Assembly (NCBI GenBank): GCA_030390025.1 | Contig: JASTWF010000236.1 | Span: 62,001-126,000 of the forward strand | From: Squalus acanthias | Taxonomy: Eukaryota | Direction: 5' to 3' | DNA length: 64,000 bases | Part shown: positions 2,681-42,189 of the stretch, one piece after another | Numbering within the stretch: the first letter of the stretch is position 1 | How the letters are laid out: the number at the start of each line of letters is the position of its first letter | Position numbers and translations under genes: made by a program | Notes under the pieces: model-generated | Told to the model about the DNA's origin: nothing | Seen by the model: only the letters and a program-made list of their open reading frames with translations | Databases searched by the model: none

Positions 2681-2873
2681 TGTCGTAGAATGAGCCTTAC
2701 GCGTGGTGAACTTAAAGTAAGCTTTAATCAACTAAAAAGGTGCTACATACAAAAGAGGTCTTACTCTATGCCTCTCCAGGATCCAACTGATTAGTCCAGT
2801 ATTTATCCTGGACTAATCACAGGAAGTGATGCAATAAAGTTAGAGTCACAGGAAGCTGTATTGTGTTACCACA
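2681..2873 (-). repeat. 3' LTR of Gypsy copy 1 (193 bp)
   Basis: Direct repeat of 6924-7117; adjacent PPT reads ttctcccccccc on + (2874-2885). Confidence 0.97.
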
Positions 2874-3210
2874 TTCTCCCCCCCCAAAAGATTAGGAGGC
2901 CGGGATGAAGTTCGAGTCACAGGAAGCTGTATTGTGTTACCACATTCTCCCTCCATTTCGTAGCCGCTGGACGAGGGAGAGCCGCACCCGTTTGGGTTCT
3001 CATAGTGGTAGAGGGCCCCTAGCCCGTTTACCCGCCGCGGGCCGTGGACCAGAGTCCGAGTGATCCAGCCCGCTCTGTGAGGGGTCAGGACGATCCTGAC
3101 TGTGTACTGGTGCCCGAACGGGTGTCGGGCAGGGCTGTGGCAGATCCGTTTCCGAGCGTACGGTACAGGGTGGATCGTGGCTGCGCGTGCGAGCCCCGAC
3201 GGGCTCATAG

Positions 3211-6200
3211 TCAGTCTGCCCCAGGTCGGCACGCTGGAGTGAGGTACCAGCCGGCGTCAGATCCAGATCGTGATGAGAGGCACCTGGCGAGCCCAGGTGT
3301 CCCTCTATGTTTCGGCGGGCAGGGAGCCAGATCCCGCAATGATACGGTAGATTCCCGACCGTCAGGATACCGAATATAGGCGTAGGTAGGGTTGACGTCA
3401 GTGAGCTCAACCTCATCTACCAGGGGGTCATTCTTAGACGCCCGGACATATCTTCGGAGTAGCACTGGTCCCGGTGCAGTCAGCCACGACGGGAGAGATA
3501 TCCCATAGGATGAGCGACGCTGAAATCGGAAGAACCGTTCATGAGGCGTCGTATTTGTGGCGGTCGAAAGGAGGGACCGTGTGGAGTGTAATGCGTCTGG
3601 AAGTACTGCTTCCCATTGCTGGTTGGGTAGGCCCCGAGATCTCAAAGCCAGACGTACCGCATTCCAGATGATAGCGTTAAAACGCTCGACTTGCCCATTC
3701 CCGACTGGATGATAAGGCGTCGTTTTGCTGGCAGCAATACCCCGTTCCGAGAGATAGGCCTTGAGTTCTCCTGACATAAAAGAAGGGCCCCGATCCGAAT
3801 GAACATAGGATGCTATGCCACAGAAAGCAAATACCTGCTCAAGGCAGCTGATAACCGTGGTCGTCAGCATATTGGGGCAGGGAAAGGCAAACGGAAAACG
3901 GGAATACTCATCGACCATGGTCAATAGATAAGTGTTGCGAGTTGAAGAGGGCAACGGCCCCTTAAAATCGATGCTAAGCCGTTGCATTGGCTGGGTCGCA
4001 TGTATGAGTATACCACCCGAGGGGCGGAAAAACCGAGGTTTCAATTCCGCACAACTCTGCAGTCCGAGCACATCTTCTTTACATCCCCGGTAGAGAATGG
4101 GAGATTTCGGGACCGCACGAAGTGTAGCATGCGAGTAACGCCCGGATGACACAACCCATCATGGATGTCTACGAGCGTAGAGGGTGCCATGGCGGAGCAG
4201 AATGCTCGTGTGAGGGTATCCGGAGCCACATTCTCCTTGCCAGGTCGATAGTGAATGGTGTAACCAAAAGAGGCCAATTCCAGCCGCCAAAGCTGTATTT
4301 TATTATTTTTAATTTTGGTCCGTTTTCGATTATCGAGCATGAAGGCGACCGATCGCTGGTCCGTGATTAAGGTAAAGTGCTGGCGAGCTAGGAGATGAGT
4401 CCACTTCCGTACTGCCTCTATGATGGCTGTAGCTTCTTTCTCGACTGGAGGATAATGTAGCTCAGCCCCTTGAAAAGTCCTGGACAAAAATGCCACCGGA
4501 CGACCTTCCTGATTCAGAGTGGCCGAGATCGCCACCTCCGAGGCATCACACTCAATGACAAAAGGAAGACTCTCATCGATGGAGTGAAGAGTCGCTTTCT
4601 CCAACTGTTTTTTCAGGAGGTTAAAGGCTGCAACAGCCGCTGTGTCTAGTGGGAATGTGCTGGCCTTCAGTAGAGGTTGGATTCGGTCCGAGAAGTTAGG
4701 AATCCATTTAGCATAGTATGCAAACAGGCCGAGGGCCCGGCGCAAGGAGGCCGGATTCTTAGGTGGCGGGAGTTCTTGGAGTGGGCGAAGCCTTTCAGGG
4801 TCAGGTTTAATGATGCCATTGCCCACACAATAGCCAAGGATGTTGATGGTTGGTTGTGACTCAATGGATTTAGCCGCATTTAATGTCAAATTACGGTGCT
4901 GGAGTGCGTCCCAAAATCGTTGGAGATTGGCGTCATGTTCCCGCTGATTGCGACCTGCGACAGTAATATTGTCCAGATAAGGAAACGTATCCTTCAAGTC
5001 TTCCTGTTTAACCAGGTCATCCATTGCTCGCTGGAAGACAGCCACTCCATTAGTGACCCCAAAGGGGAGGCGACGAAATTGATACAGCCGTCCATTGGCT
5101 TCAAAGGCCGTATACTGCTTGTCTGAGACCTTCAAGGGTACCTGATGATAGGCACTTTTTAGATCATATGTTGAGAACACCGTGTACTCAGCCAATTTAT
5201 TAACCATATCATCGATGCGCGGCAATGGGTATGCGTCCAAGTCCGTATATTGATTGATGGTCTGTGAATAGTCAATGCACAGCTGTTTCTTGTGAGGTTG
5301 TAGAGGGTTCTTAACAATAACGACCTGGGCGCGCCATGGCGACGAACAAGGCTCGATGATATCCTCTGCTAAAAGCCGAGAAATCTCAGCCGCAATAAAA
5401 GACTGGTCTTCCTGACTGAAACGTCGTGACCTTGTTATAATCGGTTTGCATCGAGGAGGGATACTGGAAAACAGTGAGGGTTCATCCAGTGAAGCTGCTG
5501 ACAATGCACAGAAGGGTAATCGAGGTAGTATATTAGAAATAGTGAGTTCAGGTTTGGATCCGCCGAACTCAATGGTGAGCTTCTTATGCTGCTTTTGAAA
5601 ATCCAGCCCTAAGATAAGATCACTACATAAGTCCTTGAGCACCAAAAGCCGGGTGGAGGGATACCTGCGACCATTAAGTGTTATTTCAACCATACAAAAG
5701 CCAGAAATTCTGGTATTAAGTGATGACTGAGCCATCGCAACTGCCTGGTCCGATGGGAAAACATGTAGCTTTAACTCTGCAACAATCTGTTCCCTAATGA
5801 AACTATCAGTGCTACCTGAGTCAATTAAGGCATCTAAAGTATGTCCATTAATTGATGCTTTTGTAGCTGCATGGAATAGGTTCTGAGGACAAGCAGCTGT
5901 AATTGGTGTCGTTGCACAAAGAGTGGCTGAAACTCTAGGTGTGTTTCTTCGAGAGGAAGCACGATAGATTTTAGCCGGAACATCTTGATAGGCCCTTACC
6001 GGGGCAGTTCGGTAGGACTTAGCTTGATAAGCCCTCGTAGAGGCTCTTGATAGGCAAACCTTTGCAAAATGACCCTTTTTGTTGCAATGACTGCAAAACG
6101 CATTGCGAGCAGGGCAGAATTTCCGAGGGTGGAACTCATCACCACAAAAGAAGCATTTCTTAGATTGCCAAGAGGCTGCCACAGTGGGGTCATCATCCTC

Positions 6201-6845
6201 TTCATCAGTGAAGTCATCAGATTGATCGTCAGGGATAAAGACCTCCCTAATAGAGTTCACCTGTGGCCTCTTAAATTGCCTGACTGTAGTTAAGGCAGTA
6301 GACCGAGGTCTGGGCACTGTATAAAGGTCTGCATTCCTTTTTGCCAGATCTAGAGAGCAAGCCATGTCATAAGCTCTCTGAAGCTCAAGTGTCTTACTTT
6401 CCAGTAGACGCTGGCGTATAAATGGGGAGGCAAGCCCGCAGATGAAAGCATCGCGGATCATTTCTTCACGGTACAGCTCAGCTGAGGCTGCCTGAAAGTT
6501 ACAGTCCATACTAAGTCTGCGAAGCTCTTGGAGGAATTTATCAATGGATTCCTCCGGCCCTTGTTGGGCTGTAGCTAGTAGATGTCTGGCATAGACCTCA
6601 TTCGGTGTCTTAGTATATAGTCTCTTAAGCGTCCGAATTGCCTCCTCGTAACTGTCCCATTTCTCCACATACTGAAATACATTCGGGGTGACACAGTTGA
6701 TGAGTATCCGCAACTTTGAGTCATCATCAGCCTTACAATATTCAAGAAAATTGTCAAACGTGCGATACCAGTGTTTCCACACCTTACCGGCTGCTGGGGT
6801 GTTTGGGTCCAAGTCAAGACGCGATGGTTTAAGGATGTTTTCCAT
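3211..6845 (-). pseudogene. gag-pol polyprotein of Gypsy copy 1, frameshifted
   Basis: ORFs 4041-6845 and 3211-4152 contain two CCHC knuckles, protease LIDSGS, RT (YDLKSAYHQ, LPFG, YLDN), RNase H (CDAS, EKEA, TDQ) and integrase DDE (IDFKG, HSDRG, QVER). Relative to copy 2 there is a 1-bp deletion near 4053 in the HHCC and a 29-bp deletion near 3296. Confidence 0.93.
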
Positions 6846-6923
6846 GATGGGTGATTCCCTGGATCCTTAGTTCCGAGTTCGTCCAAAAAGTTTGAGTGCG
6901 AAGTTTTCCAAAGTTGATTAAAT

Positions 6924-7117
6924 TGTCGTAAGAATGAGCCTTATGCGTGGTGAACTTAAAGTAAGCTTTAATCAACTAAAAAGGTGCTACATACAAAAGA
7001 GGTCTTACTCTATGCCTCTCCAGGATCCAACTGATCAGTCCAGTATTTATCCTGGACTAATCACAGGAAGTGATGCAATAAAGTTAGAGTCACAGGAAGC
7101 TGTATTGTGTTACCACA
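6924..7117 (-). repeat. 5' LTR of Gypsy copy 1 (194 bp)
   Basis: Direct repeat of 2681-2873; PBS-position sequence at 6912-6922. Confidence 0.97.
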
Positions 7118-7224
7118 GTAGTCACTGTTGAAATATATATAAATTAAAGCCATGATCCCAAGGACTCTTGATAATAATGGACAACATCATCTATAATGTG
7201 TGTATCTCAAGGTTTTTAACTTTC

Positions 7225-7805
7225 ATAACATAAGAAATAGGTGCAGGAGTAGGCCATTTGGCCCTTTGAGCCTGCTCCACCATTCAATAAGATCATGGCT
7301 GATCTTCTACCTCATCTGCACCTTCCCACACTATCCCCATATCCCTTGATTCCCTTAATATTCAAAAATCTATTGATCACTGTCTTGAATATACTCAACG
7401 ACTGAGCCTCCACTGCCCTCTGGGGTAGAGAATTCCAAAGATTCACCACCCTCTGAGTGAAGAAATTTCTCCTCATCTCAGTCCTAAATGGCCGACCCCT
7501 TATTCTGAAACTGTGACTCCTGGTTCTAGACTCCCCAGCCAGGGGAAACATCCTCCCTGCATCTACCCTGTCAAGCCCTGTAAGAATTTTGTATGTTTCA
7601 ATGAGATCACCTCTCATTCTTCGAGACTCGAGAGAATATAGGTCTAGTCTACTCAATCTCTCCTCATAGGATAATCCCCCCTCCCAGGAATCAGTCTGGT
7701 GAACCTTCGTTGCACTCCCTCTAAAGCAAGTGTATCCTTCCTTAGGTAAGCAGACCAAGACTGTACACAATACTCCAGATGTGGTCTCACCATGGCCCTA
7801 TATAA
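7225..7805 (-). mobile_element. CR1 LINE 3' fragment
   Basis: ORF 7312-7770 ([46 protein letters not shown]) plus 3' UTR. Confidence 0.88.
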
Positions 7806-10498: not shown

Positions 10499-11714
10499 TG
10501 TGTCAGCCATGGCTCAGTGGGTAGCACACTTGCCTCTGAGTCAGAAGGGTGTGGGTTCACAGTCCCACTCCAGGGACTTGAGTACATAAATCTAGATTGA
10601 CACTCCAGTGCAGTGCTGAGGGAATGCTGCACTGTCAGGGGTGCTGTCTTTCGGATGAGACGTTAAATCGAGGCCCCGCCTGCTCTCTCAAGTGGACGTA
10701 AAAGATCCTACGGCACTATTTCGAAGAAGAGCAGGGGAGTTATCCCCGGTGTCCTGGCCAATATTTATCCCTCAATCAACATAACAAAACAGATTGGCCC
10801 AGAAATTGATCTCGCTCTGTTCCCGCGGGGGTAAGCCTTCCCCGCGATGTCTCACCTCGCTTATGCTTTTTCAGATCCAGCTCGCACGAACTTGATGTTC
10901 CAGACATCAGCTGTGCTGGGCTTGCGTATCCCAGCGGCGTAGTGAATTCGTGCGAGCTGTGGGATCACGTGACTCAGTTAGAGCCAATGGCAGCACACCA
11001 TCTTCCATTCATAAGTCTCACAGCATGGCTGTGAAATCTATGAATCTTACACCCCTCCAAAATAACAGCTAAACCTCAATTAAATTTAAAAAAAAAACCA
11101 TCACATTAATAAAATAAGTATAGTTAATTAAATTAACCATTTTAAATAAAAAATTAAATTTTTGAAAAAATTTAAAATCTTTTAAAAAGTTATAAAAATA
11201 AACTTACCTGTCTTTAAAGTCTATAAAAAAGATATACCTGTAAAAAAAAATTCAAAAAAATACTTAATTCACTACTTACCTTCTTAAAAGCGGGTCTTAC
11301 TCCTCCTTTTTACATTTCCAAAATCTTCCCTACTTACCTGCGCGTCCAAAGCATGAAGTGCACAGCGTGCGCGCAGCCTGTAGCGCGCACGCGATGCACC
11401 CAGGCCCCGCCCCCTTTTCAGAAGAGCAATTGCCGGTTTTCAGCGCATGCGCAGGGCATGCAGAAAACAGGCAATTGGAGTGGGAATACGCGAGAGTACG
11501 CAGTGCGTACTCTCGCGTCCCGGGATCAATTTTCAGCCCATTATCTGGTCATTATCACATTGCTGTTTATGGGAGCTTGCTGTGCGCAAATTAGCTGCCG
11601 CGTTTCCCACATTACAATAGTGACTACACTCCAAAAGTACTTCATTGGCTGTAAAGTGCTTTGAGACATCCGGTGGTCGTGAAAGGCGCTATATAAATGC
11701 AAGTCTTTCTTTTT
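10499..11714 (+). mobile_element. tRNA-derived SINE (SacSINE1/DeuSINE-like) interrupted by MITE A1
   Basis: A box tggctcagtgg, B-box-like ggttc, Deu-like core (gaggcccc..gatcc..ggcactatttcgaagaagagcagggg), L2-like tail ..ctatataaatgcaagtctttc; the sequence resumes exactly after the MITE. Confidence 0.85.
10796..11539 (+). mobile_element. Harbinger-type MITE family A, copy 1 (744 bp)
   Basis: Imperfect TIRs GGCCCAGAAATTGATC..GATCAATTTTCAGCCC; 3-bp TSD ATT confirmed against the empty SINE sequence (acagATTatctgg); three more copies in the window. Confidence 0.88.
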
Positions 11715-12040
11715 TGAGAAAGTACAAAGGCAAGCAACAAAGATGACTTGGATGTCAACATATTTAAGTTATGAAGAAAGGTTAAGGAGGGTGAACTTGT
11801 TTTCTTTGGGAAAGAGGAGGTGATCTCATTGAATTTCGCAGGATTATAAAGAGGATTTACAAAGGTAATCCAGGCAAATTGATCACTGTGGCGAAGGGTT
11901 CAAATACCAGGTTACACAAGTTAAAAATTAGTAAGTAGGAGTAAGTAGGGGAGTCAGGTGGAACCTTTTCACTCAAAAGATAATAAAGTTGTTGAATAAG
12001 TTACTAGGAAGACTATTCAAGCAGACAGTATAAATAGATA
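11715..12040 (+). mobile_element. degenerate CR1 LINE fragment
   Basis: Decayed LSYEERL..LFSL.KR-type sequence and downstream CR1 C-terminal similarity. Confidence 0.55.
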
Positions 12041-12699: not shown

Positions 12700-13520
12700 T
12701 AATTTACGTTTATATAATGCCTTTTGTTTAAAATGCAGTCACTTTTGTTATGCACCCTGTGGCTGCAAACATGGCAGCCAGTTTGTGCACAGCAAGGTCC
12801 CACAAACAGCAAACGAGATAAATGACCAGTTAATCTGTTTTGCTGGTGTGAGTTGAGGGAGGAATGTTCGCCCGGACACCAGGAGAACTCATCGAAGAAT
12901 CATAGAAATTTACGGCACAGAAGGAGGCCATTCGGCCCATCGTGTCCGTGCCAGCCAAAAAAGAGCTATCCCAGCCTAATCCCACTTTCCAGCACTTGAT
13001 CCGTAGCCCTGTAGGTTACGGCACTTCAAGTGCATATCCAAGTACTTTTTAAATGTGATGAGGGTTTCTGCCTCTACCACCCTTTCAGGCAGTGAGTTCC
13101 AGACCCCCACCACCCTCTGGGTGAAAAAAGTTCTCCTCAACTCCCCTCTAATCCTTCTACCCATTACTTTAAATTGATGTCCTCTGGTTATTGACCTCTC
13201 TGCTAGGGGAAATAGGTCCTTCCTATCCACTCTATCTAGGCCCCTCATAATTTTATACACCTCAATTAAGTCTCCCCTCAGCCTCCTCTGTTCCAAAGAA
13301 AACAACCCCAGCCTAGCCAATTTTTCCACATAGCTAAAATGCTCTTCTTCAAATAGTACCAAAGAATCTCTAACATCCACCTGAACAGACAGATTGGGTG
13401 TTTCACCCAAAAGCCAACACTCCCTCAGTGCTGGCCTGAAGGGTCAGCCTCGAGATTATGTGAGTCTTGAACCCACAATCTCCTCACTCGGAGGCAAGAC
13501 TATGATCATTGAGCTGTGGG
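12700..13520 (-). mobile_element. degenerate SINE with a nested CR1 fragment
   Basis: SINE tail/core at ~12700-12893 resumes at ~13342-13520 after the CR1 insertion. Confidence 0.6.
12896..13341 (-). mobile_element. CR1 LINE 3' fragment
   Basis: ORF 12976-13410 (FSYVEKLARLGLFSLEQRRLRGDLIEVYKIM..FFTQRVVGVWNSLP). Confidence 0.88.
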
Positions 13521-16756: not shown

Positions 16757-18499
16757 TATGAGATGTAAGAAATGTGAGATGCCAACAAGCCCTGCTTTCA
16801 ATTTTTTTGTGTGCAACTGAAACCTAACTGAAAATGTGATTTGTCTCACTGAGGCAACTGGAATTCATGTCCAGCTCACTATCTTCACTCAGCAACCTTT
16901 CTTTGTTATGTTTAGCTGTGGTGCTAGTATTGGAAATGGGAGAGGACGAACGAACTAGCGTCACTCTGTGAAAACAGTTTGTGGACAAAACACCCAGAAC
17001 ACAGTTCAAGGCTTCCTACTTTCCGAATTTAATGAATGCATTTTGGAATAGGGGTGGGGCGGTGGTGTTGCATAAACACTTATGATTGCCGGCAAGATTG
17101 GCCATTCACAGTCTGCCAGAAATGCTTACAGCCGTAGGCCGCAGCACCAAGCACAGCTCTGCCCCCTACCCTCACCCAGGAATGCCTAGATTCCCAGGAT
17201 CCGCCTACACAAGGAATTCAAACCCCAGTGCTCTGCCATTCCCAGCCTCAACCCCAGGGACACCTGAAACCCAGCCCCAGGAATGCTTCGAACTTGGCCT
17301 CAGTACAGAAACGCCTCTAACTCCTCGTGTCAGGCCCTCGGATCTCCTTTGCTCTCTCTTTTAGAGCCAAGAATGCCTCTGTTCCGAAACTGGACCTCAG
17401 GAACACCTCTGTCTGCTGCCTCAGACCCTGGACTTTGCTGCTCCCATGCGCCAGATAATAGGAAACTTATCTTGCTCCACTCGTGATTCAACGTGCACCT
17501 CGTGTCCCACTCTAGCTCCCGGTTTTCCATCCTGCTGTGTCCCATGGTCCTTGTTGCATTCCTGATCGGTGCTCCATTCCTTATCCAACTCCTCTACCCT
17601 TCAGTCCTAGGCCCCCAGCGTACCTGTGAGCAACACTATGAGCAGATCTACTAATAGCTAATATATATTCCTGATTCTGAGTTAGGACTTGGCTGTTTGA
17701 GTGCATGTTCAGCAACGTCTCTTTGCAATGGTTCCGTACATTGGAACACCACAGTAGAATGGTGGACTGCGGTTTTGATACCCTAACTCACTGAGTTCCT
17801 AAATTGAGCTACGCTGTAGCAGTTGGCAAGTCCCCACTGAGTTGCTTTGACACACCTGCTGGGCAACTGGCCAAGAGCAACATTAGTGGCGCCTGGGAAC
17901 AAGTTGCTTGTCCTGTCCTCTCAGACATAGAAGGTGAGTGGAAGTTGGAGACAAGTGAGATGAGAAAACCAGGATCAAAAAGAGAAAAGCAAAGCTTCAT
18001 AAGACACAAATAAGCTGTGTGTCTTTCCAACTTCCTTTGCATAGTTTAGGTAGTTTGCTTTTAGACCATCAGTTGTAGTCTGTTGATACTTTTACAAATT
18101 AAATGAAAATGTGGACTATTTTTCACTTTCATGTCTTTTCTGTTCTGTGCCCGTTTTTCTGAAGACTGCTTGCATTTGCTTTCATCTTCACGTTACCTGA
18201 TGGGCCGATATGTTTATCGAGTGAGTAGGTGAGTTATGCAAGCTCAGAATGGATAGCAACAGGGGACAGTACAGTTGGCTTAAACTCAGTTATGATCTCC
18301 CTAGGTTAGGGAGATGAAAATAAATCATCAACGTTCCACTCCTGATCAGTATTCAGCAAACTCTGCTGGCGTGTTTGTACATCAGGGTGAGGGTGGGATC
18401 GGGCTGCGACGTACCCTGTGGTCAAATAGTTTAATACTCATGTCAAGTCCACCCAAAACAATGACCACTTGGACACAATACCAGAGTGTGATTGGTACC

Positions 18500-18693
18500 T
18501 GTGGTAACACAATACAGCTTCCTGTGACTCGAACTTTATTGCATCACTTCCTGTGATTAGTCCAGGATAAATACTGGACTGATCAGTTGGATCCTAGAGA
18601 GGCATAGAGTAAGACCTCTTTTGTATGTAGCACCTTTTTAGTTGATTAAAGCTTACTTTAAGTTCACCACGCGTAAGGCTCATTCTTACGACA
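18500..18693 (+). repeat. 5' LTR of Gypsy copy 2
   Basis: Identical by eye to 22740-22933; contains two cttcctgtga (ETS-like) repeats, TATA-like gataaata and ATTAAA. Confidence 0.98.
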
Positions 18694-18694
18694 A

Positions 18695-18705
18695 TTTAAT
18701 CAACT
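18695..18705 (+). promoter_or_regulatory. non-tRNA primer-binding site (putative self-priming)
   Basis: TTTAATCAACT is the exact reverse complement of LTR 18640-18650 AGTTGATTAAA; no TGG follows the LTR. Confidence 0.75.
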
Positions 18706-18771
18706 TTGAAAAACTTCGCACTCAAACTTTTTGGACGAACTCGGAACTAAGGATCCAGGGAATCACCCATC

Positions 18772-21700
18772 ATGGAAAACATCCTTAAACCATCGCGTCT
18801 TGACTTGGACCCAAACACCCCAGCAGCCGGTAAGGTGTGGAAACACTGGTATCGCACGTTTGACAATTTTCTTGAATATTGTAAGGCTGATGATGACTCA
18901 AAGTTGCGGATACTCATCAACTGTGTCACCCCAAATGTATTTCAGTATGTGGAGGAATGGGACAGTTACGAGGAGGCAATTCGGACGCTTAAGAGACTAT
19001 ATACTAAGACACCGAATGAGGTCTATGCCAGACATCTACTAGCTACAGCCCAACAAGGGCCGGAGGAATCCATTGATAAATTCCTCCGAGAGCTTCGCAG
19101 ACTTAGTATGGACTGTAACTTTCAGGCGGCCTCAACTGAGCTGTACCGTGAAGAAATGATCCGTGATGCTTTCATCTGCGGGCTTGCCTCCCCATTTATA
19201 CGCCAGCGTCTACTGGAAAGTAAGACACTTGAGCTTCAGAGAGCTTATGACATGGTTTGCTCTCTAGATCTGGCAAAAAGAAATGCAGACCTTTATACAG
19301 TGCCCAGACCTCGGTCTACTGCCTTAACTACAGTCAGGCAATTTAAGAGGCCACAGGTGAACTCTATTAGGGAGGACTTTATCCCTGACGATCAATCTGA
19401 TGACTTCACTGATGAAGAGGATGATGACCCCACTGTGGCAGCCTCTTGGCAATCTAAGAAATGCTTCTTTTGTGGTGATGAGTTTCACCCTCGGAAATTC
19501 TGCCCTGCTCGCAATGCGTTTTGCAGTCATTGCAACAAAAAGGGTCATTTTGCAAAGGTTTGCCTATCAAGAGCCTCTACGAGGGCTTATCAAGCTAAGT
19601 CCTACCGAACTGCCCCGGTAAGGGCCTATCAAGATGTTCCGGCTAAAATCTATCGTGCTTCCTCTCGGGTTTCCTCTCGAAGAAACACACCTAGAGTTTC
19701 AGCCACTCTTTGTGCAACGACACCAATTACAGCTGCTTGTCCTCAGAACCTATTCCATGCAGCTACAAAAGCATCAATTAATGGACATACTTTAGATGCC
19801 TTAATTGACTCAGGTAGCACTGATAGTTTCATTAGGGAACAGATTGTTGCAGAGTTAAAGCTACATGTTTTCCCATCGGACCAGGCAATTGCGATGGCTC
19901 AGTCATCACTTAATACCAGAATTTCTGGCTTTTGTATGGTTGAAATAACACTTAATGGTCACAGGTATCCCTCCACCCGGCTTTTGGTGCTCAAGGACTT
20001 ATGTAGTGATCTTATCTTAGGGCTGGATTTTCAAAAGCAGCATAAGAAGCTCACCATTGAGTTCGGCGGATCCAAACCTGAACTCACTATTTCTAATATA
20101 CTACCTCGTTTACCGTTCTGTGCATTGTCAGCAGCTTCACTGGATGAACCCTCACTGTTTACCAGTATCCCTCCTCGATGCGCACCGATTATAACAAAGT
20201 CACGACGTTTCAGTCAGGAAGACCAGTCTTTTATTGCGGCTGAGATTTCTCGGCTTTTAGCAGAGGATATCATCGAGCCTTGTTCGTCGCCATGGCGCGC
20301 CCAGGTCGTTATTGTTAAGAACCCTCTACAACCTCACAAGAAACGGCTGTGCATTGACTATTCTCAGACCATCAATCAATATACGGACTTGGACGCATAC
20401 CCATTGCCGCGCATCGATGATATGGTTAATAAACTGGCTGAGTACACGGTGTTCTCAACATATGATCTGAAAAGTGCCTATCATCAGGTACCCTTGAAGG
20501 TCTCAGACAAGCAGTATACGGCCTTTGAAGCCAATGGACGGCTGTATCAATTTCGTCGCCTCCCCTTTGGGGTCACTAATGGAGTGGCTGTCTTCCAGCA
20601 AGCAATGGATGACCTGGTCAAACAGGAAGACTTGAAGGATACGTTTCCTTATCTGGACAATATTACTGTCGCAGGTCGCAATCAGCGGGAACATGACGCC
20701 AATCTCCAACGATTTTGGGATGCACTCCAGCACCGTAATTTGACATTAAATGCGGCTAAATCCATTGAGTCACAACCAACCATCAACATCCTTGGCTATT
20801 GTGTGGGCAATGGCATCATTAAACCTGACCCTGAAAGGCTTCGCCCACTCCAAGAACTCCCGCCACCTAAGAATCCTTGCGCCGGGCCCTCGGCCTGTTT
20901 GCATACTATGCTAAATGGATTCCTAACTTCTCGGACCGAATCCAACCTCTACTGAAGGCCAGCACATTCCCACTAGACACAGCGGCTGTTGCAGCCTTTA
21001 ACCTCCTGATAAAACAGTTGGAGAAAGCGGCTCTTCACTCCATCGATGAGAGTCTTCCTTTTGTTGTTGAGTGTGATGCCTCGGAGGTGGCGATCTCGGC
21101 CACTCTGAATCAGGAAGGTCGTCCGGTGGCATTTTTGTCCAGGACTTTTCAAGGGGCTGAGCTACATTATCCTCCAGTCGAGAAAGAAGCTACAGCCATC
21201 ATAGAGGCAGTACGGAAGTGGAGTCATCTCCTAGCTCGCCAGCACTTTACCTTAATCACGGACCAGCGATCGGTCGCCTTCATGCTCGATAATCGAAAAC
21301 GGACCAAAATTAAAAATAATAAAATCCAGCTTTGGCGGCTGGAATTGGCCTCTTTTGGTTACACCATCCACTATCGACCTGGCAAGGAGAATGTGGCTCC
21401 GGATACCCTCACACGAGCATTCTGCTCCGCCATGGCACCCTCTACGCTCGTAGACATCCATGATGGGTTGTGTCATCCGGGCGTTACTCGCATGCTACAC
21501 TTCGTGCGGTCCCGAAATCTCCCATTCTCTACCGGGGATGTAAAGAAGATGTGCTCGGACTGCAGAGTCTGTGCGGAATTGAAACCTCGGTTTTTCCGCC
21601 CCTCGGGTGGTATACTCATACATGCGACCCAGCCAATGCAACGGCTTAGCATCGATTTTAAGGGGCCGTTGCCCTCTTCAACTCGCAACACTTATCTATT

Positions 21701-22721
21701 GACCATGGTCGATGAGTATTCCCGTTTTCCGTTTGCCTTTCCCTGCCCCAATATGCTGACGACCACGGTTATCAGCTGCCTTGAGCAGGTATTTGCTTTC
21801 TGTGGCATGGCATCCTATGTTCATTCGGATCGGGGCCCTTCTTTTATGTCAGGAGAACTCAAGGCCTATCTCTCGGAACGGGGTATTGCTGCCAGCAAAA
21901 CGACGCCTTATCATCCGGTCGGGAATGGGCAAGTCGAGCGTTTTAACGCTATCATCTGGAATGCGGTACGTCTAGTTTTGAGATCTCGGGGCCTACCCAA
22001 CCAGCAATGGGAAGCAGTACTTCCAGACGCATTACACTCCACACAGTCCCTCCTTTCGACCGCCACAAATACGACGCCTCATGAACGGTTCTTCCGATTT
22101 CAGCGTCGCTCATCCTATGGGATATCTCTCCCGTCGTGGCTGACTGCACCGGGACCAGTGCTACTCCGAAGATATGTCCGGGCGTCTAAGAATGACCCCC
22201 TGGTAGATGAGGTTGAGCTCACTGACGTCAACCCTACCTACGCCTATATTCGGTATCCTGACGGTCGGGAATCTACCGTGTCATTGCGGGATCTGGCTCC
22301 CTGCCCGCCGAAACATAGAGGGACACCAGGGGATGATATTGTACCAGGCACATCTCTGGGCTCGCCAGGTGCCTCTCATCACGATCTGGATCTGACGCCG
22401 GCTGGTACCTCACTCCAGCGTGCCGACCTGGGGCAGACTGACTATGAGCCCGTCGGGGCTCGCACGCGCAGCCACGATCCACCCCGTACCGTACGCTCGG
22501 AAACGGATCTGCCACAGCCCTGCCCGACACCCGTTCGGGCACCAGTACACAGTCAGGATCGTCCTGACCCCTCACAGAGCGGGCTGGATCACTCGGACTC
22601 TGGTCCACGGCCCGCGGCGGGTAAACGGGCTAGGGGCCCTCTACCGCTACAAGAACCCAAACAGGTGCGGCTCTCCCTCGTCCAGCGGCTACGAAATGGA
22701 GGGAGCATCCCGGCCTCCTAA
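18772..22721 (+). pseudogene. gag-pol polyprotein of Gypsy copy 2, one frameshift
   Basis: ORFs 18772-20955 and 20877-22721 are joined by restoring a 7-bp deletion (ggcctcc, present in copy 1) near 20876; gag CCHC x2, PR, RT YLDN (20650-20661), RH, IN HHCC+DDE. Confidence 0.94.
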
Positions 22722-22739
22722 TCTTTTGGGGGGGGAGAA

Positions 22740-22933
22740 TGTGGTAACACAATACAGCTTCCTGTGACTCGAACTTTATTGCATCACTTCCTGTGATTAG
22801 TCCAGGATAAATACTGGACTGATCAGTTGGATCCTAGAGAGGCATAGAGTAAGACCTCTTTTGTATGTAGCACCTTTTTAGTTGATTAAAGCTTACTTTA
22901 AGTTCACCACGCGTAAGGCTCATTCTTACGACA
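22740..22933 (+). repeat. 3' LTR of Gypsy copy 2
   Basis: Identical to the 5' LTR and preceded by PPT ggggggggagaa. Confidence 0.98.
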
Positions 22934-23249
22934 GTACCTGTGTAACCATACCTCAGTAGGGAGTCAACACCTGTAGGATAATAGATGAGGGATGATAATT
23001 GGTGAAAAAACGCATCTGTTGTTTTAGTAGGGAAACGTTACCCTTTGCCAAACACCTGGCACTAATGACATCTCATGATTTAAAATATACCTCACCATTA
23101 CTATTCACCACAATACATTGCAGTCCCTTTTGCGTAAGAAATTGCAACTGCACGTGTTAAAGTAACTGAAAGTGATTAAGGTGTACTGAATTCATTATCC
23201 AGGTTTTTCAAATATTAAGCACTTGTTCTTATCCTTTTATCACAAAAAA

Positions 23250-24365
23250 GTTGTTGCGTTTATCAAATGCCTTATCATGTCTCCTAACATCTCAAAGTGC
23301 TTCATATACAATGAATTACTTTGAAGTGCATTGACTGTTACTATATGGCTAAACACAGCAGCCATGTTTCATCTGGCAAGATCCTACAAACAATGATGAG
23401 ATGAATGGCAAGTTAATCTTTTTCTTTTTTTGGTGCTTTGATTGAGGGAGGATTGTTGGTCATGTTGAACGGTGCCATGGGTCAGAAGGTTGTGGGTTCA
23501 AGTCCCATTCCAGAGACTTGAGCACAAAAATCTTGGCTGTTACTCCCAGTGCAGTACCGAGGGAGTGCTGCAGTGTCGGAGGTGCCGTCTTTCAAATGAA
23601 ATGTTAAACCAAAGCCCTGTCTGCTCTTTCACATAAAAGATCCCATGGCATTATTTGAAGAAGAGCAGGGGAGTTATTCCCAGTGTCCTGGCCAATATTT
23701 ATCCCTCAACCAACATCACTAAAACAGATAATCTGGTCATTATCACATTGCTGTTTGTGGGAGCTTGCTGTGTGCAAATTGGGTGTTGCATTTTCCTACA
23801 TTATAACGGTGACTACACTGTACTTCATTGGCTGTAAAGTGCTTTAGGACATCCTGAGGTTGTGAAAGGCGCTAAATAAATGCATGTCTTCCTTTTTATT
23901 AACTTCACCTTTCTCCCTGATGTTTATAATGTTGTATTATCAATTCAGTTGGTAGCACTCTTGCCTCTGAGTCAGGAGGTTGTGGGTTCAAGTCCCACTA
24001 CAGAGACTTGAGCATAAAAATCTAGGCTGACACTCCCAGTGCAGTACAGAGGTCTTTCGGATGAGACGTTAAACCGAGGCCCCGTCTGCCCTCTCAGGTG
24101 GACGTAAAAGATCCCATGGCACTATTTCGAAGAAGAGCAGGGCAGTTACCCCAGTGTCCTGGCCAAAATTTATCCCTCAATCAACATCATTGCAAAAAAC
24201 AGATTATCTGGTCATTACCACATTGCCGTTTGTAGGAGCTTGCTGCCGTGTTTCAATTACAACAGTGACTACACTTCAAAAAGTACTTCATTGGTTGTAA
24301 AACGTTTGGGACATCCTGAGGTCGTGAAAGGCGCTCTCTAAATGCAAATCTTTCTTTCTTCTTTT
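23250..24365. mobile_element. cluster of three SINEs: ~23250-23480 (-), ~23480-23900 (+), ~23945-24365 (+)
   Basis: Repeated B box, Deu-like core and tail of the SINE family seen at 37511-37982. Confidence 0.8.
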
Positions 24366-25525: not shown

Positions 25526-25734
25526 TGTTATTAATTTTAGCTAATTCAATGCTAATAGCAGCTGAGATTATTGTTTATTGTATATTCATTTGAAAGACTT
25601 TCTTCCTGTTACTAATTTGGCTAATCCCAATGATTACGGTAATTGATCTTTGACGACTATTAACATGTCTGCGTGGAAATGTCTCCATTAATATAATCAG
25701 CAGAAAATTCTGGAAACACACAGCAGGTCTTCCA

Positions 25735-26400
25735 GCACCTCAAAGCTCTGCAGGGCAGTAGTGATAACCACCCTCCTGTATGCCTCAGAGACATGGACCA
25801 TGTACAGCAGGCACCTCAATGCACTGGAGAATACCACCAACGCTGCCTCCGCAAGATCCTGCAAATCCATTGGCAGGATAGGTGCACCAACGTCAGTGTT
25901 CTCGCTCAGGCCAATATCCCCAGCATCGAAGCTTTGACCACGCACGATCAGCTCCGATGGACGGGTCACATTGTCCACATGCCCGATACGAGACTCCCAA
26001 AACAAGCGCTCTACTCGGAGCTCCAACACGGCAAGAGAGCCCCAGGTGGGCAGAGGAAACGCTTCAAGGACACTCTCAAAGCCTCCTTGAAAAAGTGCAA
26101 CATCCCCACCGACACCCGGGAATCCCTGGCCCAAGACCGCACAAAGTGGAGGAGAAGCATCCGGGAAGGCGCTGAACACCTGGAGTCTCTTCCTCTTCGC
26201 CGGGAGCAAGTGGAAGCCAAGCGCAAGGAGCGCATGTCAACCCAAACACCCCACCCCCCCCGCCCCTTCAACCACCATCTGCCCCGCCTGTGACAGAGAC
26301 TGTAGGTCCCACATTGGACTCATCAGTCACCTGAGAACTCATTTTTAATGTGGAAACAAGTCATCCTCGGTTCCGAGGGGCTGCCTAAGAAGAGAAGATG
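25735..26400 (+). mobile_element. RTE-clade LINE 3' fragment
   Basis: QRCLRKILQIHWQD..LRWTGHIVHMPDTRLPKQALYSEL..GGQRKRFKDTLK is a typical RTE C-terminus; ends in a short aagaagag tail. Confidence 0.85.
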
Positions 26401-26449
26401 ACTTCAAAGATAAAAGATAGGTTAACGTATCAGGTGATGCCCCTTTGCC

Positions 26450-26670
26450 CAGTGTCCTGGCCCAATATTTATCCTTCAACCAACATCACCAACACAGATT
26501 ATCTGGTTATTATCTCATTGCTGTTTGTGGGAGCTTGCTGTGTGCAAATTGGCTGCCGCGTTTCCTACATTACAACAGTGACTACACTTCAAAAAGTACT
26601 TCATTGGCTGTAAAGCGCTTTGGGACATCCTGAGGTCACAAACAGCATTATAAAATTCAAGTTCTATCTT
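26450..26670 (+). mobile_element. SINE 3' half
   Basis: Matches the SINE core and tail. Confidence 0.75.
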
Positions 26671-26733
26671 TTCCTGTCAGAATTGGAATAAGGTGGCCCC
26701 CTTTATAGGACGGGCTGAAAGGTGAAACATATT

Positions 26734-27869: not shown

Positions 27870-30410
27870 TTTTAATTCATTCACGGGATGTGGGCGTCGC
27901 TGGCAAGGCCAGCATTTATTGCCCATCCCTAATTGCCCTTGAGAAGGTGGTGGTGAGCCGCCTTCTTGAACCGCTGCAGTCCGTGTGGTGAAGGTACTCC
28001 CACAGAGCTGTTAGGGAGGGAGTTCCAGGATTTTGACCCAGCGACGATGAAGGATCGGCGATATACTTCCAAGTCAGAATGATGTGTGACTTGGAGGGGA
28101 ACTTGGAGGTGGTGGTGTTCCCATGCGCCTGCTGCCCTTGTCCTTCTAGGTGGAAGAGGTCGCGGGTTTGGGAAGAAGCCTTGGTGAGTTGCTGCAGTGC
28201 ATCTTGTAGATGGTACACACTGCAGCCACGGTACGCCGGTGGTGGAGGGAGTGAATGTTTAAGGTGGTGGATGGGGTGCCAATCAAGCGGGCTGCTTTGT
28301 CCTGGATGGTGTCGAGCTTCTTGAGTGTTGTTGGAGCTGCACTCACCCTGGCAAGTGGAGAGTATTCCATCACACTCCTTACTTGTGCCTTGTAGATGGT
28401 GAAAAGACTTTGGGGAGTCAGGAGGTGAGACACTCGCTGCAGAATACCCAGTCACTGACCTGCTCTTGTTGCCACTGCATTTATGTGGCTGGTCCAGTTA
28501 AGTTTCTGGTCAATGGTGACCCCCAGGATGTTGATGGTGGGGGATTCGGCGATGGTAATGCCGTTGAATGTCAAGGGGAGGTGGTTAGACTCTCGCTGTT
28601 GGAGATAGTCATTGCCTGGCACTTCTGTGGCGCAAATGTTACCTGCCACTTACCAGCCCAAGCCTGAACGTCGTCCAGGTCTTGTTGCATGCGGGCATGG
28701 ACTGCTTCATTATCTGAGGAGTTGTGAATGGCACTGAACACTGTGCAGTCATCAGCAAACATCCCCATTTCTGACCTTATGTTGGAGGGAGGTCATTGAT
28801 GAAGCAGCTGAAGATGTTTGGGCCTAGGACACTGCCCTGAGGAACTCCTGCAGCGATGTCCTGGGGCTGTGATGATTGACCTTCAACCACCACAACCATC
28901 TTCCTTTGTGCTAGGTATGACTCCAGCCAGTGGAGTGTTTTCCCCCCCGATTCCCATTGACTTCAATTTTACTAGGGCTTCTTGATGCCACACTCGGTCA
29001 AATGTTGCCTTGATGTCAAGGGCAGTCACTCTCACCTCAGCTCTGGAATTCAGCTCATTTGTCCATGTTTGGACCAAGGCTGTAATGAGGTCGGGAGCTG
29101 AGTGGTCTTAGCGGAACCCAAACTGGGCATCTGTGAGCAGGTTTTTGGTGAGTAAGTGCCGCTTGATAGCACTGTCGATGACACCTTCCATCACTTTGCT
29201 GATAATTGAGAGCAGACTGATGGGGCGGTAATTGGCCAGGTTGGATTTGTCCTGCTTTTTGTGGACAGGACATACCTGGGCAGTTTTCCACATTGTCGGA
29301 TAGATGCCAGTGTTGTAGCTGTACTGGAACAGCTTGGCTAGAGGCGCGGCTAGTTCTGGAGCACAAGTCTTCAGCATGATAGCCGAGATGTTGTCGGGGC
29401 CCATAGCCTTTGCTGTATCCAGTGCGCTCAGTCGTTTCTTGATATCACGTGGAGTGAATCGAATTGGCTGAAGACTGGCTTCTGTGATGGTGGAGACCTC
29501 AGGAATAGGCCGATATGGATCATCCACTCGGCACTTCTGGCTGAAGATGGTTGCAATCGCTTCAGCCTTGTCTTTTGCACTCACGTGCTGGGCTCCACCA
29601 TCATTGAGGATGGGGATATTCATGGAGCCTCCTCCTCCCGTTAGTTGTTTAATGGTCCACCACCATTCACGACTGGATGCGGCAGGACTGCAGAGCTTTG
29701 ATCTGATCCGTTGATTGTGGGATCGCTTAGCCCTGTCTATAGCATGCTGCTTCTGCTTTTTAGCATGCATGTAGTCCTGAGTTGCAGCTTCCCCAGCTTG
29801 GCACTTCATTTTTAGGTATGCCTGGTGCTGCTCCTGGCATGCTCTTCTACACTCCTTATTGAACCCCTGGCTTGATGGTAATGGTAGAGTGAGGGATATG
29901 CCGGGCCATGAGGTTACAGATTATGGTGGAATACAATTCAGCTGCTGCTGATGGCCCACAGCGCCTCATGGATGCCCAGTTTTGAGCTGCTAGATCTGTT
30001 CTGAATCTATCCCATTTAGCACGGTGGTAGTGCCACACAGCACGATGGAGGGTGTCCTCAGTGTGAAGACGGGACTTCGTATCCACAATGACAGTGCGGT
30101 GGTCACTGCTACAATACTGTCATGGACAGATGTATCTGTGACAGGTAGATTGGTGAGGACGAGGTCAAGTAGGATTTTCCCTCGTGTTGGTTCTCTCACC
30201 ACCTGTTGCAGGCTCAGACTGGCAGTTATGTCCTTCAGGACTCAGCCAGCTCGGTCAATAGTGGTGCTACCAAGCCACTCTTGGTGATGGACATTGAAGT
30301 CCCCCACTCAGAGTATATTCTGTGCCCTTGCTACTCTCAGTGCTTCTTCCAAGTGGTGTTCAACATGGAGGAGTACTGATTCATCAGCTGAGGGAGGGCG
30401 GTTGTACGTT
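27870..30410 (-). mobile_element. 5'-truncated CR1-group (L2/Crack-like) LINE with disrupted APE-RT ORF2
   Basis: PTRGKILLDLVLTN (APE end), KAMGPDNI, NYRPISLLSIISKVME, TALDIKATFDRVWH, GMFADD; multiple frameshifts. Confidence 0.9.
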
Positions 30411-35912: not shown

Positions 35913-37275
35913 GAAAAAAGCTGGAGATGTAACAGATTTTAAGCAGAGACAGGGAGGGGATGGGGTGGGGTGGGGGGCGGTGGGTAGGAATTGAAGGAAT
36001 ATTCTGTGCTAAGGTAAGAGGCAGGAAAGATAAAATGTTGCAAATGAGGATGGCAAAATCATACAGCATGAAAAATAGGAGCAGGGGTTATAGTCTGAAA
36101 TTGTTGAACTCAATGTTGAGTCCAGAAGGCTGTAAAGTGCCTAATCGAAAGATGAGGTGCTGTTCCTCGAGCTTACATTGAGTTTCGTTGGAACAGTGTA
36201 AGAGGCCAAGGACAGAGAGATCAGAGTGGGAGTGAAGCGGAAAATTAAAGTGACAGGCAACCGGAAAAATCAGGGTCACCCTTACGGACTGAACGGAGAT
36301 GTTCCGCAAAGCGGTCGCCCAATCTGCGTTTGGTCTCCCCAGTGTAGAGGAGACCGCATCGTGAGCAGCGAATACAGTATACTAGATTGCAAGAAGTACA
36401 AGTAAATCGCTGTTTCACCTGGAAGGGGTGTTTGGGGCCCTGGACAGTGGGAAGGGAAGAGGTAAAAGGGCAGGTGTTGCATCTCCTGCGCTTGCACGGG
36501 AAGGTGCCGGGCGAAGGGAAAGGGCTGTTAGGGGTGATTGAGGAGTGAACCAGGGTGTCGCGGAGGGAGCGGTCCCTTCGGAATGCTGAAAGGGGAGGTG
36601 AGGGGAAGATGCGTTTGGTGGTGGGATCACGTTGGAGGTGGCGGAAATGGCAGAGGATGATCCGTTGAATGTGGAGGCTGGTGGGGTGAAAGGTGAGGAC
36701 AAGGGGAACCCTATCATGGTTCTGGGAGGGAGGGGAAGGGGTGAGAGCAGAAGTATGGGAAATGGAATGGACACGGTCAAGGGCCGTGTCAACCACAGTA
36801 GAGGGGAATCCTCGGTTGAGGAAAAAGGAATACATGGCGAAAGCACTGGTATGGAAGGTGGCATCGTCAGAACAGACGCGGCGGAGACGGAGAAACTGGG
36901 AGAATGGAATAGAGTGCTTACATGAAGCGGGGTGGGAGGAGTGTAGTCCAGGTAGCTGTGGGAGTCAGTGGGCTTGTAGTGGATGTTTGTCGATAGCCTA
37001 TTGCCAGAAATGGAGACAGAGAAGTCAAGGAAGGGAAGAAAAGAGTCAGAGATGGACCATGTGAAGGTGAGGGAAGGGTGGAATTTGGAAGTAAAGTGAA
37101 TGAACTTTTCTAGTTCAGGGCGAGAGCAGGAAACGGCACCGATACAGTCATCGATGTATTGGAAAAAGAGGTGAGGGAGGGGACCTGAGTAGGACTGGAA
37201 CAAAGAATGTTCCACATATCCCATGAAAAGGCAGGCATAGCTAGGGGCCATGCGGGTTCATCTCCAGTTTTTTCC

Positions 37276-37510: not shown

Positions 37511-37982
37511 GTGTCAGCTGTGACTCAGTGGGTAGCACCCTCGCCTCTGAGTCAGGAGGTTGTGGGTTCATAGTCCCACTCCAGAGACTTGAGCACAAAA
37601 ATCTAGGCCGACGCTCCAGTGCAGTGCTGAGGGAGTGCTGCAATGTCGGAGGTGCCGTCTTTTGGATGAGATGTTAAACCGAGGCCCCGTCTGCTCTCTC
37701 GGGTGGATGTAAAAGATCCCAAGGCGCTATTAAAAGAATCGGAGAATTCTCCCCGGTGTCCTGGGGCCAATATTTATCCCTCAATCAACATCACTGAAAA
37801 ACAAATTATCTGGTCATTATCACGTTTCTGTTTGTGGAAGCTTGCTGTGCGCAAATTGGCTGCCGCGTTTCCTACACTACAACAGTGACTACGCTTCAAA
37901 AAGTACTTCATTGGCTGTAAAGCGCTTTGGGACATCCGGTGGTTGTGAAAGGCGCTATAGAAATGCAAGTCTTTCTTTTCTT
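37511..37982 (+). mobile_element. full-length tRNA-derived SINE (SacSINE1/DeuSINE-like)
   Basis: A and B boxes, Deu-like core, L2-like tail ending gcaagtctttctttt. Confidence 0.88.
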
Positions 37983-38719
37983 TATTTAGGGCCGAATAGG
38001 TGATGCAGGGGGGTTAGCATACTGCTTTCACCTCAGCTGAATTTGAATACAGTCCATGCTGATTTTGCTTTTGACCATCTGTAGAAACCGATTACCATGT
38101 CTGATTCTCAAGTTACTGAGAAATTCACATAAATAGGGTTTCTTTGCCCAACATGGAGTACACACTATTTTCTCACTTACCCAAAGCCAGAGAGCTGAGG
38201 CACAGGTTGACCAGAGCCAAGACTTGGGGCTCCCAAGTGTGTGCAAAGATACTGTTGTTGAGCCAATTAAAACTGCAGCTTAGCAGCACAGAGCACTAAT
38301 AAGTTTCCTATTGCTTGTCTAACCAAGTGAGAAGATTCCCAGCTCCCAGTAACAGGTTCCATTAACAAACCAGGCTGGCTGGTCAATCATTAGTACTGTC
38401 CTGGAGTGCTTCCTTGGCTGCAGTATTGGATTACTGAGTCTCCCACAGAAGGTATTCTCGGTTCTGAACTTCCATTGCCAGGTGTGCCATCGTGGAGCCA
38501 CCTTGACCCCAAAGAGACCTACTTGGCTCCCCCAGCCTCAAATAGGATAGTTACGAGTTGATCTGCCCATATGCATGGTTAGAAAGCATCCTCTATATGC
38601 TGGCAAAACGAACAGCCTGAACCCCATTCATAGTGAGTATGGGTCCACAGCACAATACTACTCCTAATTTCATACCAATCTCACTCAGAGGGACAATAGG
38701 ACTGCTTGTGTGGGAGAAA

Positions 38720-41154: not shown

Positions 41155-41577
41155 AAAGAAAGACATGCATTTCTACAGTGCCTTTCATGACCAATGGACT
41201 TCCCAAAGCGCTTTACAGCCAATGAAGTACTGTTGTAATGCAGCAGCCAATTTGCACACAGCAAGCTCCCACAAAATAGAAATGTGATAATGATCAGATA
41301 ATCTGTTTTTTAGGGATAAATATTACCAGATAATCTTTTTTAGTGATATTGATTGAAGGATAAATATTGGCCAGGACACTAATGACTCTTCTCTGAAATA
41401 GTGCCATGGGATCTTTTATGTGCATCTGAGGGGGTAGACGGGACCTCGGTTAAATGTGTCGATGACAGCACTGCACTGGAGTGTCAGCCAAGATTTTTGT
41501 TCTGAGGTCTCTGGAGTGGGACTCGAACTCCCAACCTTCTGACCCTAGAGGTGGGAGAGCTACTCACTGAGCCACTG
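41155..41577 (-). mobile_element. SINE (SacSINE1/DeuSINE-like) abutting the SUFU promoter
   Basis: Reverse-complement SINE with a short internal duplication (ccagataatct..tttt..g). Confidence 0.8.
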
Positions 41578-41600
41578 CGAGCCTGATTGGAGAGCGTTGA

Positions 41601-41975
41601 GAGCGAATCAGAGCGAGCGGGGGACCGGGGGGCCGGCAGCGAATCAGAGCGAGCGGCAGCACAGGGGCCGGCAGCGAATCAGAGCGAGCGTCAGCCCGGT
41701 GGACTTCAGCGAATCAGAGCGAGTGTCAGCCCGGAGGGAGGGGGCCGGCAGCGAATCAGAGCGAGCGGAAGCCCCGGGGGGGCCGGCAGCGAATCAGAGA
41801 GAGCGGCGAATCAGAGCGAGCGTCAGCCCGGAGGGAGGAGGCTAGCAGCGAATCAGGGCGAGCGGCAGCCCGCCAGCAGCGAATCAGAGCGAGCAGCAGC
41901 CCAGAGGGGGGGAGGACCGGCAGCGAATCAGAGCGAGCGGCAGCCCGGGGGGGGCCGGCAGCGAATCAGAGCGAA
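41601..41975 (+). repeat. GC-rich minisatellite, 11 copies of the core GCGAATCAG(A/G)G
   Basis: Cores at about 41602, 41639, 41674, 41709, 41751, 41789, 41806, 41848, 41879, 41923 and 41961, separated by variable G-rich spacers. Confidence 0.9.
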
Positions 41976-42189
41976 CCAAACAGCAGCGGGTGGGCGGGAG
42001 CTCGAGAGGAGCCGAAAGACAAGAACAACCTGACGCCTCGCTTGGCCTGCGCTGAGCTGAGAAGACGCTTGAGTTTTAACGGGGCAGGGAGAAGTCACCA
42101 GCCGGAGAGACACTCGGCACATAGTCAGCCAAAGCGGCAGGACAAGTCGATAGCCGGCGGCCTGTGCCTGTGCCCGTGCCCCCGGAGCG

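Follow-up and report, generated by a model that had tools for sequence, protein, structure and literature searches.

The Asn in the reverse transcriptase (RT) motif YLDN is fixed in a young retrotransposon family with long terminal repeats (LTRs) in the genome of Squalus acanthias and also in a second family of the same genome, and it is the product of neither chance nor decay. Judged from its sequence, the element belongs to the Cigr-1 clade of Ty3/gypsy LTR retrotransposons and was amplified recently, and we think it likely that its RT copies its own element with the two remaining Asp residues. The third Asp of RT is treated as essential, and its change kills the polymerase of HIV-1 and MMLV and blocks the transposition of Ty1 and Ty3. 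Young Asn copies numbering over 2,000, the lack of an Asp copy and strong purifying selection together come near to an in vivo yes that an Asn RT works. The case belongs to Ty3/gypsy, the superfamily in which the yeast mutation is lethal. A natural Asn at this position was already known from BEL/Pao elements; what is added here is a census of thousands of young Asn copies, in which no Asp helper was found.

Structure of the two copies and identity of the clade

The window (the whole stretch of 64,000 nucleotides that was analysed) contains two 4.4-kb copies of the Ty3/gypsy LTR element, copy 1 on the minus strand (2681-7117) and copy 2 on the plus strand (18500-22933), each with its own target site duplication (TSD). 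The copies are near-identical, inverted relative to each other and separated by 11 kb. Between them there were 56 differences in about 4,400 aligned bases and five indels; indels of 12, 29 and 39 bases are sited in gag and the integrase tail.

Copy 2, with all of its features on the plus strand, is flanked by GTACC on the left (18495-18499) and on the right (22934-22938). Its 194-bp 5′ LTR (18500-18693), which starts with TG and ends with CA, matches the 3′ LTR (22740-22933) exactly (0/194 mismatches), and a polypurine tract is located at 22728-22739. The frame for gag (with two CCHC knuckles), protease and RT (18772-20955) is broken by a frameshift near 20873, and the frame for RNase H and integrase (20871-22721) has intact catalytic residues. 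Copy 1, with all of its features on the minus strand, is flanked by ACTAC (2676-2680 and 7118-7122), and its 5′ LTR (6924-7117) and 193-bp 3′ LTR (2681-2873) are two substitutions and one indel apart. The identical LTRs of copy 2 and the intact TSDs of both copies agree with what the earlier note had reported. A frame of 934 aa for gag, protease, RT and RNase H (4041-6845) is frameshifted near 4050, at the start of integrase, and the integrase core lies in a separate frame (3211-4158).

The domain order of the element is gag, protease, RT, RNase H and integrase. No match to env or a chromodomain was found in the frames of either window copy or by Pfam, and a Pfam search of the integrase tail gave no match; loss of the GPY/F module is one of the marks of the Cigr-1 clade. 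This domain order without env, the TG...CA LTRs, the short TSD and the polypurine tract are features of Ty3/gypsy (Metaviridae) elements.

The RT motif C of copy 2 is TAT CTG GAC AAT at 20650-20661 (plus strand), with the Asn codon at 20659-20661, and copy 1 has the same codons at 4968-4979 (minus strand). The reading of this motif as YLDN was confirmed from the codons and from the alignment with Ty3 RT. The motif lies within the Pfam RVT_1 match and aligns column for column with the YLDD of Ty3 RT (4OL8), which is the closest solved sequence to the RT of the element (E 1.4e-50). The catalytic Asp of motif A (YDLKSAY) is intact in copy 2 (20464-20466) and is Asp in 119 of 120 homologues. The active site reads D...YLDN in place of the three-Asp triad D...YXDD. 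In an AlphaFold model (pLDDT 88, pTM 0.76) the RT-RNase H part is folded normally, at a level that does not resolve the geometry of the active site, and fold comparison of the model ranked CaMV RT first and Ty3 RT second.

The type element of Cigr-1 comes from Ciona intestinalis, and the clade has been reported in molluscs and annelids too (PMC6238403, PMC8556966). The printed Cigr1 row in supplement 4 of PMC8220671, compared by eye, has RAQ, DYSQT, LDAYPLP, FEA, PFGVTNGV, HDxN and PDPERLRPL in common with our element; the motif is YLDD in Cigr1 and YLDN in this family. These signature residues, among them RAQ, DYSQT and PFGVTNGV, distinguish the clade from other gypsy RTs. The Cigr-1 row of a table in the supplement of PMC2774666 also fits, with two CCHC knuckles, an integrase that follows RNase H, and neither chromodomain nor env. 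Our tree held a C. intestinalis relative (P0419) instead of Cigr1 itself, and this relative nests inside the clade in the tree of 167 rows. The Mag C-clade was our first guess for the home of the element, and it was dropped on the match with the signature residues of Cigr1. The passages on Cigr-1 in the literature covered make no mention of an Asn variant or of a self-complementary primer site, and the supplement files examined of PMC6238403, PMC8556966, PMC3670739 and PMC2774666 contain no such motif. Furthermore, our literature search, which reached a minority of the subscription journals, found no paper that describes an Asn motif for Ty3/gypsy or the Cigr-1 clade; the relevant papers that it did find were all on BEL/Pao.

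Asn and Asp in the genome and across the clade

To count the copies, a 32-base pattern around the motif, with either the Asn or the Asp codon, was searched against the same 3.7-Gb genome. Pattern counting was used because the protein search (86-residue YLDN query, best 150 of 11,106 candidates scored) returned only places with 100% identity (150/150). The Asn-codon pattern had 2,203 exact matches, and 2,348 when one mismatch was allowed. No exact match in the genome was found for the Asp-codon version, nor was any pattern match found with another first base at the Asn codon. The degenerate pattern FPYLDD[IV]T[IV][AG]G matched one place genome-wide, a broken copy of the second family; pattern searches of this kind would miss Asp-bearing relatives whose flanking residues differ.

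Many of the copies look intact. Open frames of at least 1,290 aa were present in 69 of the best 150 copies scored. All 16 copies that were fetched carry YLDN in a single frame of 1,323-1,329 aa, and their LTR pairs are 95.9-100% identical, 5 of the 16 being without a mismatch. In 7 of these 16 copies an exact 5-bp TSD stands directly at the ends reported, the alignment ends being offset in the rest. The genomic copies form two length classes, about 4,441 and 4,480 bp. These counts bear out the earlier claim that the family as a whole is marked by the Asn. The opposite case, in which most members would carry YLDD, is excluded within the reach of the patterns searched, with 0 Asp-coding copies. 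Recent mobility had also been argued from the LTR identity and TSDs of the window copies. The young intact copies of the census support it, but the two window copies are insufficient on their own: because both are frameshifted, the identity of their LTRs could not exclude mobilisation in trans, and the genome census does.

The second family had 274 matches in this genome, with Asn in 99 of the first 100 matches listed, and its RT has 81% amino acid identity to that of the first family. This Cigr-type family (L113-L119, L136-L139) has LTRs of about 217 bp ending in TGAC...GTCA and carries YLDN; its copies are older and mostly broken. Between the first family and seven copies of the second, pS was 0.75-0.80, at which synonymous sites are saturated, and dN was 0.10-0.12. 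With dN low across a saturated synonymous distance, the RT is under strong purifying selection; one that was merely carried along would be less conserved. The within-family counts of synonymous and nonsynonymous differences (149 vs 53) were not relied on, as the loci had been chosen by protein identity. The assembled contigs of four sequencing runs showed no difference at the Asn codon, but they were set aside as evidence, because rare variants are dropped from such contigs and two of the runs were only guessed to be RNA. The viral contigs gave a single short, irrelevant match.

The motif is xxDN in 102 and xxDD in 18 of the top 120 homologues. When the representative search was included, Asn was found in 148 of the 214 alignments with at least 40% identity, Asp in 65 and a gap in 1. 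Below 40% identity, all 113 alignments have Asp (113/113), in a set that is redundant and dominated by fused gene models. How much Asn is retrieved varies with the query used: starting from an Asp-bearing sequence, the 78 clade members recovered split into 70 with Asp and 8 with Asn, and outside the clade Asp was found in 42/42. The motif could be read in 79 of 81 metagenome loci, and both Asn codons are in use there (25 AAC and 25 AAT, beside 17 GAT and 4 GAC); the remaining 8 loci have other codons, in copies that look decayed. Among 123 clade proteins, the third position is Asn in 87 and Asp in 36, and nothing else was seen. The other two catalytic Asp residues are kept in 123/123 and 122/123, and the catalytic residues of RNase H and integrase are kept in Asn and Asp members alike.

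The phylogenetic trees rest on RT stretches with a minimum length of 195-200 residues; thinning by identity left 154 of 193 rows in one tree and 167 from 301 in the other. For the tree of 167 rows the trait column was masked. These are quick trees without bootstrap, in which the counts of changes are approximate and their direction is unproven. A single branch with an SH-aLRT of 99 separates the clade from the other rows. On the best tree of 167 rows there were 21 changes between Asn and Asp, at least 7 of them forced by strong branches, compared with a mean of 57.9 after shuffling; the smaller tree of 154 rows had 17. The early-branching rows of the clade carry Asp, and the subclade of the window element has 44 rows, 40 with Asn and 4 with Asp. 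In each of eight clusters at 90% (15 members listed for each), all members with the motif share one state, apart from one stray Lys, and the clusters of Asp families reach 444 and 242 members. Taken together, the alignments and trees show that throughout the clade this position is occupied by Asp or Asn alone and has switched many times.

We found no compensating column that tracks Asn versus Asp among 767 column-states (best mean net 3.2), in a comparison of low power with only six independent pairs, and no acidic residue specific to the Asn members. The closest sister pair with different states is P0102 (Asn) and P0095 (Asp), which are 86% identical over RT-RNase H. Repeated natural switches of this kind supply matched enzyme pairs for probing the role of the residue.

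The named hosts of Asn elements are four crustaceans (decapod/stomatopod, copepod), two octocorals and a catshark, and those of Asp elements are Ciona, Hydra, a sea cucumber (Apostichopus), two insects and a nematode. All seven named Asn hosts are aquatic. Asp is found in the three hosts that live on land or as parasites, but equally in Ciona, Hydra and the sea cucumber, in a small sample of 13 named hosts.

The self-complementary primer site

In copy 2, the primer-binding site TTTAATCAACT (18695-18705, plus strand) begins one base after the LTR. It is the perfect complement of an 11-nt arm in the LTR, AGTTGATTAAA (18640-18650, plus strand), which is the predicted self-primer and likely the 5′ end of the transcript. 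The site does not have the TGG start of the tRNA type, and no tRNA genes were found in the 64-kb window. The corresponding site and arm of copy 1 are at 6912-6922 and 6967-6977 (minus strand), and a stem-loop is predicted at the end of U5 in copy 2 (18672-18690). The fold of the 89-nt core had z -2.9 with 11/11 pairs, and the fold of 18590-18780 (191 nt) was no better than those of shuffled sequences (z -0.7). The second family has the same primer-site core as the first.

Primer sites were looked for in the 40 loci whose upstream DNA was long enough, a set that includes several near-copies. At the same place, 18/40 of these loci have a duplex of 9-15 pairs, compared with 0/40 control stretches. 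Comparison of the 12 distinct pairs shows one Watson-Crick type replaced by another at positions 5-8 and 11. Moreover, 8 of the 12 arms start with AGT exactly 11 bases before their end, a start that we take to resemble an initiator motif, and 10 of the 12 end in a hexamer like a poly(A) signal (ATTAAA, AATAAA, GATAAA or GTTAAA). Such a hexamer lies in the arm of the window element (18645-18650) and in those of L033, L048, L063, L070 and L100; in L058, AATAAA is found just downstream of the arm. Because the arm ends in a hexamer of this type, the duplex could also hide a 5′ poly(A) signal, either as an alternative or as an added role.

The duplex was present in 10/25 Asn loci (L046 being doubtful), 6/10 Asp loci and 2/5 others. 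We regard the self-complementary site as a real and covarying trait of the clade, apparently independent of the Asn. Since it is found with Asp as well as with Asn, the site does not explain the Asn. The earlier note had suggested that the Asn is linked to self-priming; this link was not supported, since the site marks the clade and not the Asn.

Minus-strand synthesis would start, in the style of Tf1, from the first 11 nucleotides of the element itself, and a cut after the arm, to be made by RNase H, would fall where minus-strand synthesis must begin, as in Tf1/Tj1. For Tf1, priming by a stretch derived from the own LTR is an established mechanism; for Tj1 it has been proposed (PMC4600332). 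As in these elements, the primer site adjoins the 5′ LTR and complements an upstream stretch of the LTR in place of a tRNA, the core has 11 nt and a U5 stem-loop is predicted. However, our element differs from Tf1/sushi in that it has no chromodomain, its RT is of another clade with the Cigr-1 signatures, and its arm ends in a poly(A)-like hexamer. By analogy, the element would resemble Tf1 in priming but is no member of Tf1/sushi, and its clade, though it stands outside that group, seems to prime itself as well.

Explanations for the Asn

The same substitution has been studied in yeast elements. Ty1 D211N is active as a polymerase, with kpol down 223-fold and a preference for Mn, but does not transpose, and suppressors in RNase H rescue it partly; Ty1 D211E is dead (PMC2148107). 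In Ty3, the D214N enzyme retains activity but has low processivity, and the mutation is lethal in vivo (PMC5371799). Changes of either motif-C Asp inactivate the RT of HIV-1 and MMLV (PMC554778). What the earlier note had stated, an active Ty1 polymerase with transposition lost and a crippled HIV-1 RT, agrees with PMC2148107 and PMC554778. The two yeast mutants have the substitution of our element at the same position and are active in vitro. However, they fail to transpose, whereas the Asn form of our element has been amplified to more than 2,000 copies.

Natural YVDN motifs occur in the BEL/Pao elements Cer7-Cer12, whose activity was left open in 2005 (PMC554778), and in nematode belpaoviruses (PMC9094657). 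The carriers include Cer7-Cer12, Tas, Mabel, Nabel, rows of the Dan clade and Atlas virus (PMC554778, PMC9094657, PMC8220671 supplement 4). These BEL/Pao elements look intact, and their natural Asn occupies the RT position at which our element has its own. However, they belong to a different superfamily, with a three-knuckle Gag and a different RT, and our element has two CCHC knuckles and an RT unlike the printed BEL rows (compared by eye). The Asn of BEL/Pao and that of our element are of independent origin. In addition, YLDN is printed in the Mag-type annelid rows LLGY63, 64, 108 and 153 and in Dane1 (PMC8220671 supplement 4), three of these rows being near-copies, hinting at a further independent origin.

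The reading that we prefer is that the Asn-bearing RT works with two Asp residues. The two metals are bound by the Asp of motif A together with the first Asp of motif C (PMC4207942), and in the Asn-bearing RT these two residues would bind them as in all such polymerases. The third position would need only a side-chain carbonyl of the size of Asp or Asn; because the site holds only these two residues, the constraint would be on the carbonyl and not on the charge. As a guess, the remodelled palm and fingers of the whole clade (RAQ, DYSQT, PFGVTNGV), which are present in both states, likely make the swap nearly neutral. If a permissive background exists, it would most plausibly consist of the changes in the fingers and motif B that Asn and Asp members have in common. 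Against a tolerated Asn stand the loss of transposition in Ty1 and Ty3 with the same change and the fact that no residue was found, among the 767 column-states, that would account for its tolerance in the clade. An RT adapted to two catalytic Asp residues had been proposed in the earlier note. Working with two Asp residues is still the best reading, but "adapted" is not supported, because the clade switches back to Asp repeatedly.

In favour of an RT that is dead and moved in trans by an Asp-bearing helper, both window copies are frameshifted, and the same change is lethal for the transposition of Ty1 and Ty3. However, the family has no Asp copies, the sole Asp place in the genome (found with the degenerate pattern) is broken, many frames are full-length, the RT is under purifying selection across a saturated synonymous distance, and Asn families occur in several phyla. 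With no Asp copies, many open frames and a second conserved Asn family, a helper in trans is highly improbable. The Asp might otherwise be restored by A-to-I editing of AAU/AAC or by deamidation after translation. One A read as G converts either Asn codon to Asp, and the site alternates between exactly these residues. Yet edited genomic RNA would yield Asp-coding insertions, and none stands beside the 2,203 Asn matches; deamidation is usually slow before Ile/Val. We give this explanation hardly any credence.

Could the Asn be an adaptation to self-primed reverse transcription? All Asn members belong to a clade in which the self-complementary site is common, and self-priming may be a precondition. 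However, it is as common with Asp as with Asn, the early-branching rows are Asp, the Asn motif is found in BEL/Pao elements as well, and the RTs of Tf1 and Tj1 have YXDD. Such an adaptation is very unlikely. The Asn may instead have been selected in some lineages, altering the rate, the Mn preference, pyrophosphate release or the balance between RT and RNase H, with switches that track the ecology of host or element. The low kpol, Mn preference and RNase H suppressors of Ty1 D211N fit this explanation, and so do the subclade in which 40 of the 44 rows have Asn, so that Asn lasts over long spans, and the hosts, with Asn in crustaceans, octocorals and a shark and Asp in two land insects and a nematode. 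On the other hand, the switches are repeated without a co-changing residue, the Asp families are large too, the marine Ciona and Apostichopus relatives carry Asp, and host labels exist for 13 proteins only. We think selection of this kind quite unlikely. A broader form of the same idea, which is also unlikely, is that in a self-priming clade whose RT was rebuilt to spare the third carboxylate, the Asp/Asn switch is a selected dial with which the Asn tunes the rate, the metal use and the balance of RT and RNase H. If this were true, Asn and Asp sister enzymes would reveal the role of the third Asp in all RTs, and they would show the rescue of a change that is lethal in Ty1, Ty3 and HIV. For annotation, an RT with YXDN should not be scored as dead.

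Near-identical sequence to 18500-19700 was also present in the sequencing runs of five organisms from six studies, which could come from close relatives or from recent horizontal spread. The other repeats of the genome seem to be of the kinds found in a cartilaginous fish, and the window contains several of its own. Fragments at 7312-7797, 12976-13443, 25697-26293, 29108-29920, 36245-37257 and 57153-57728 presumably resemble coding sequence of LINE (CR1/L2, RTE) and Penelope type. A dispersed SINE-like family is found at 11500-11720, 23478-24363, 26448-26677, 37769-37984 and 59302-59735, and a G+A-rich tandem array with units of about 36-42 bases lies at 41561-41984.
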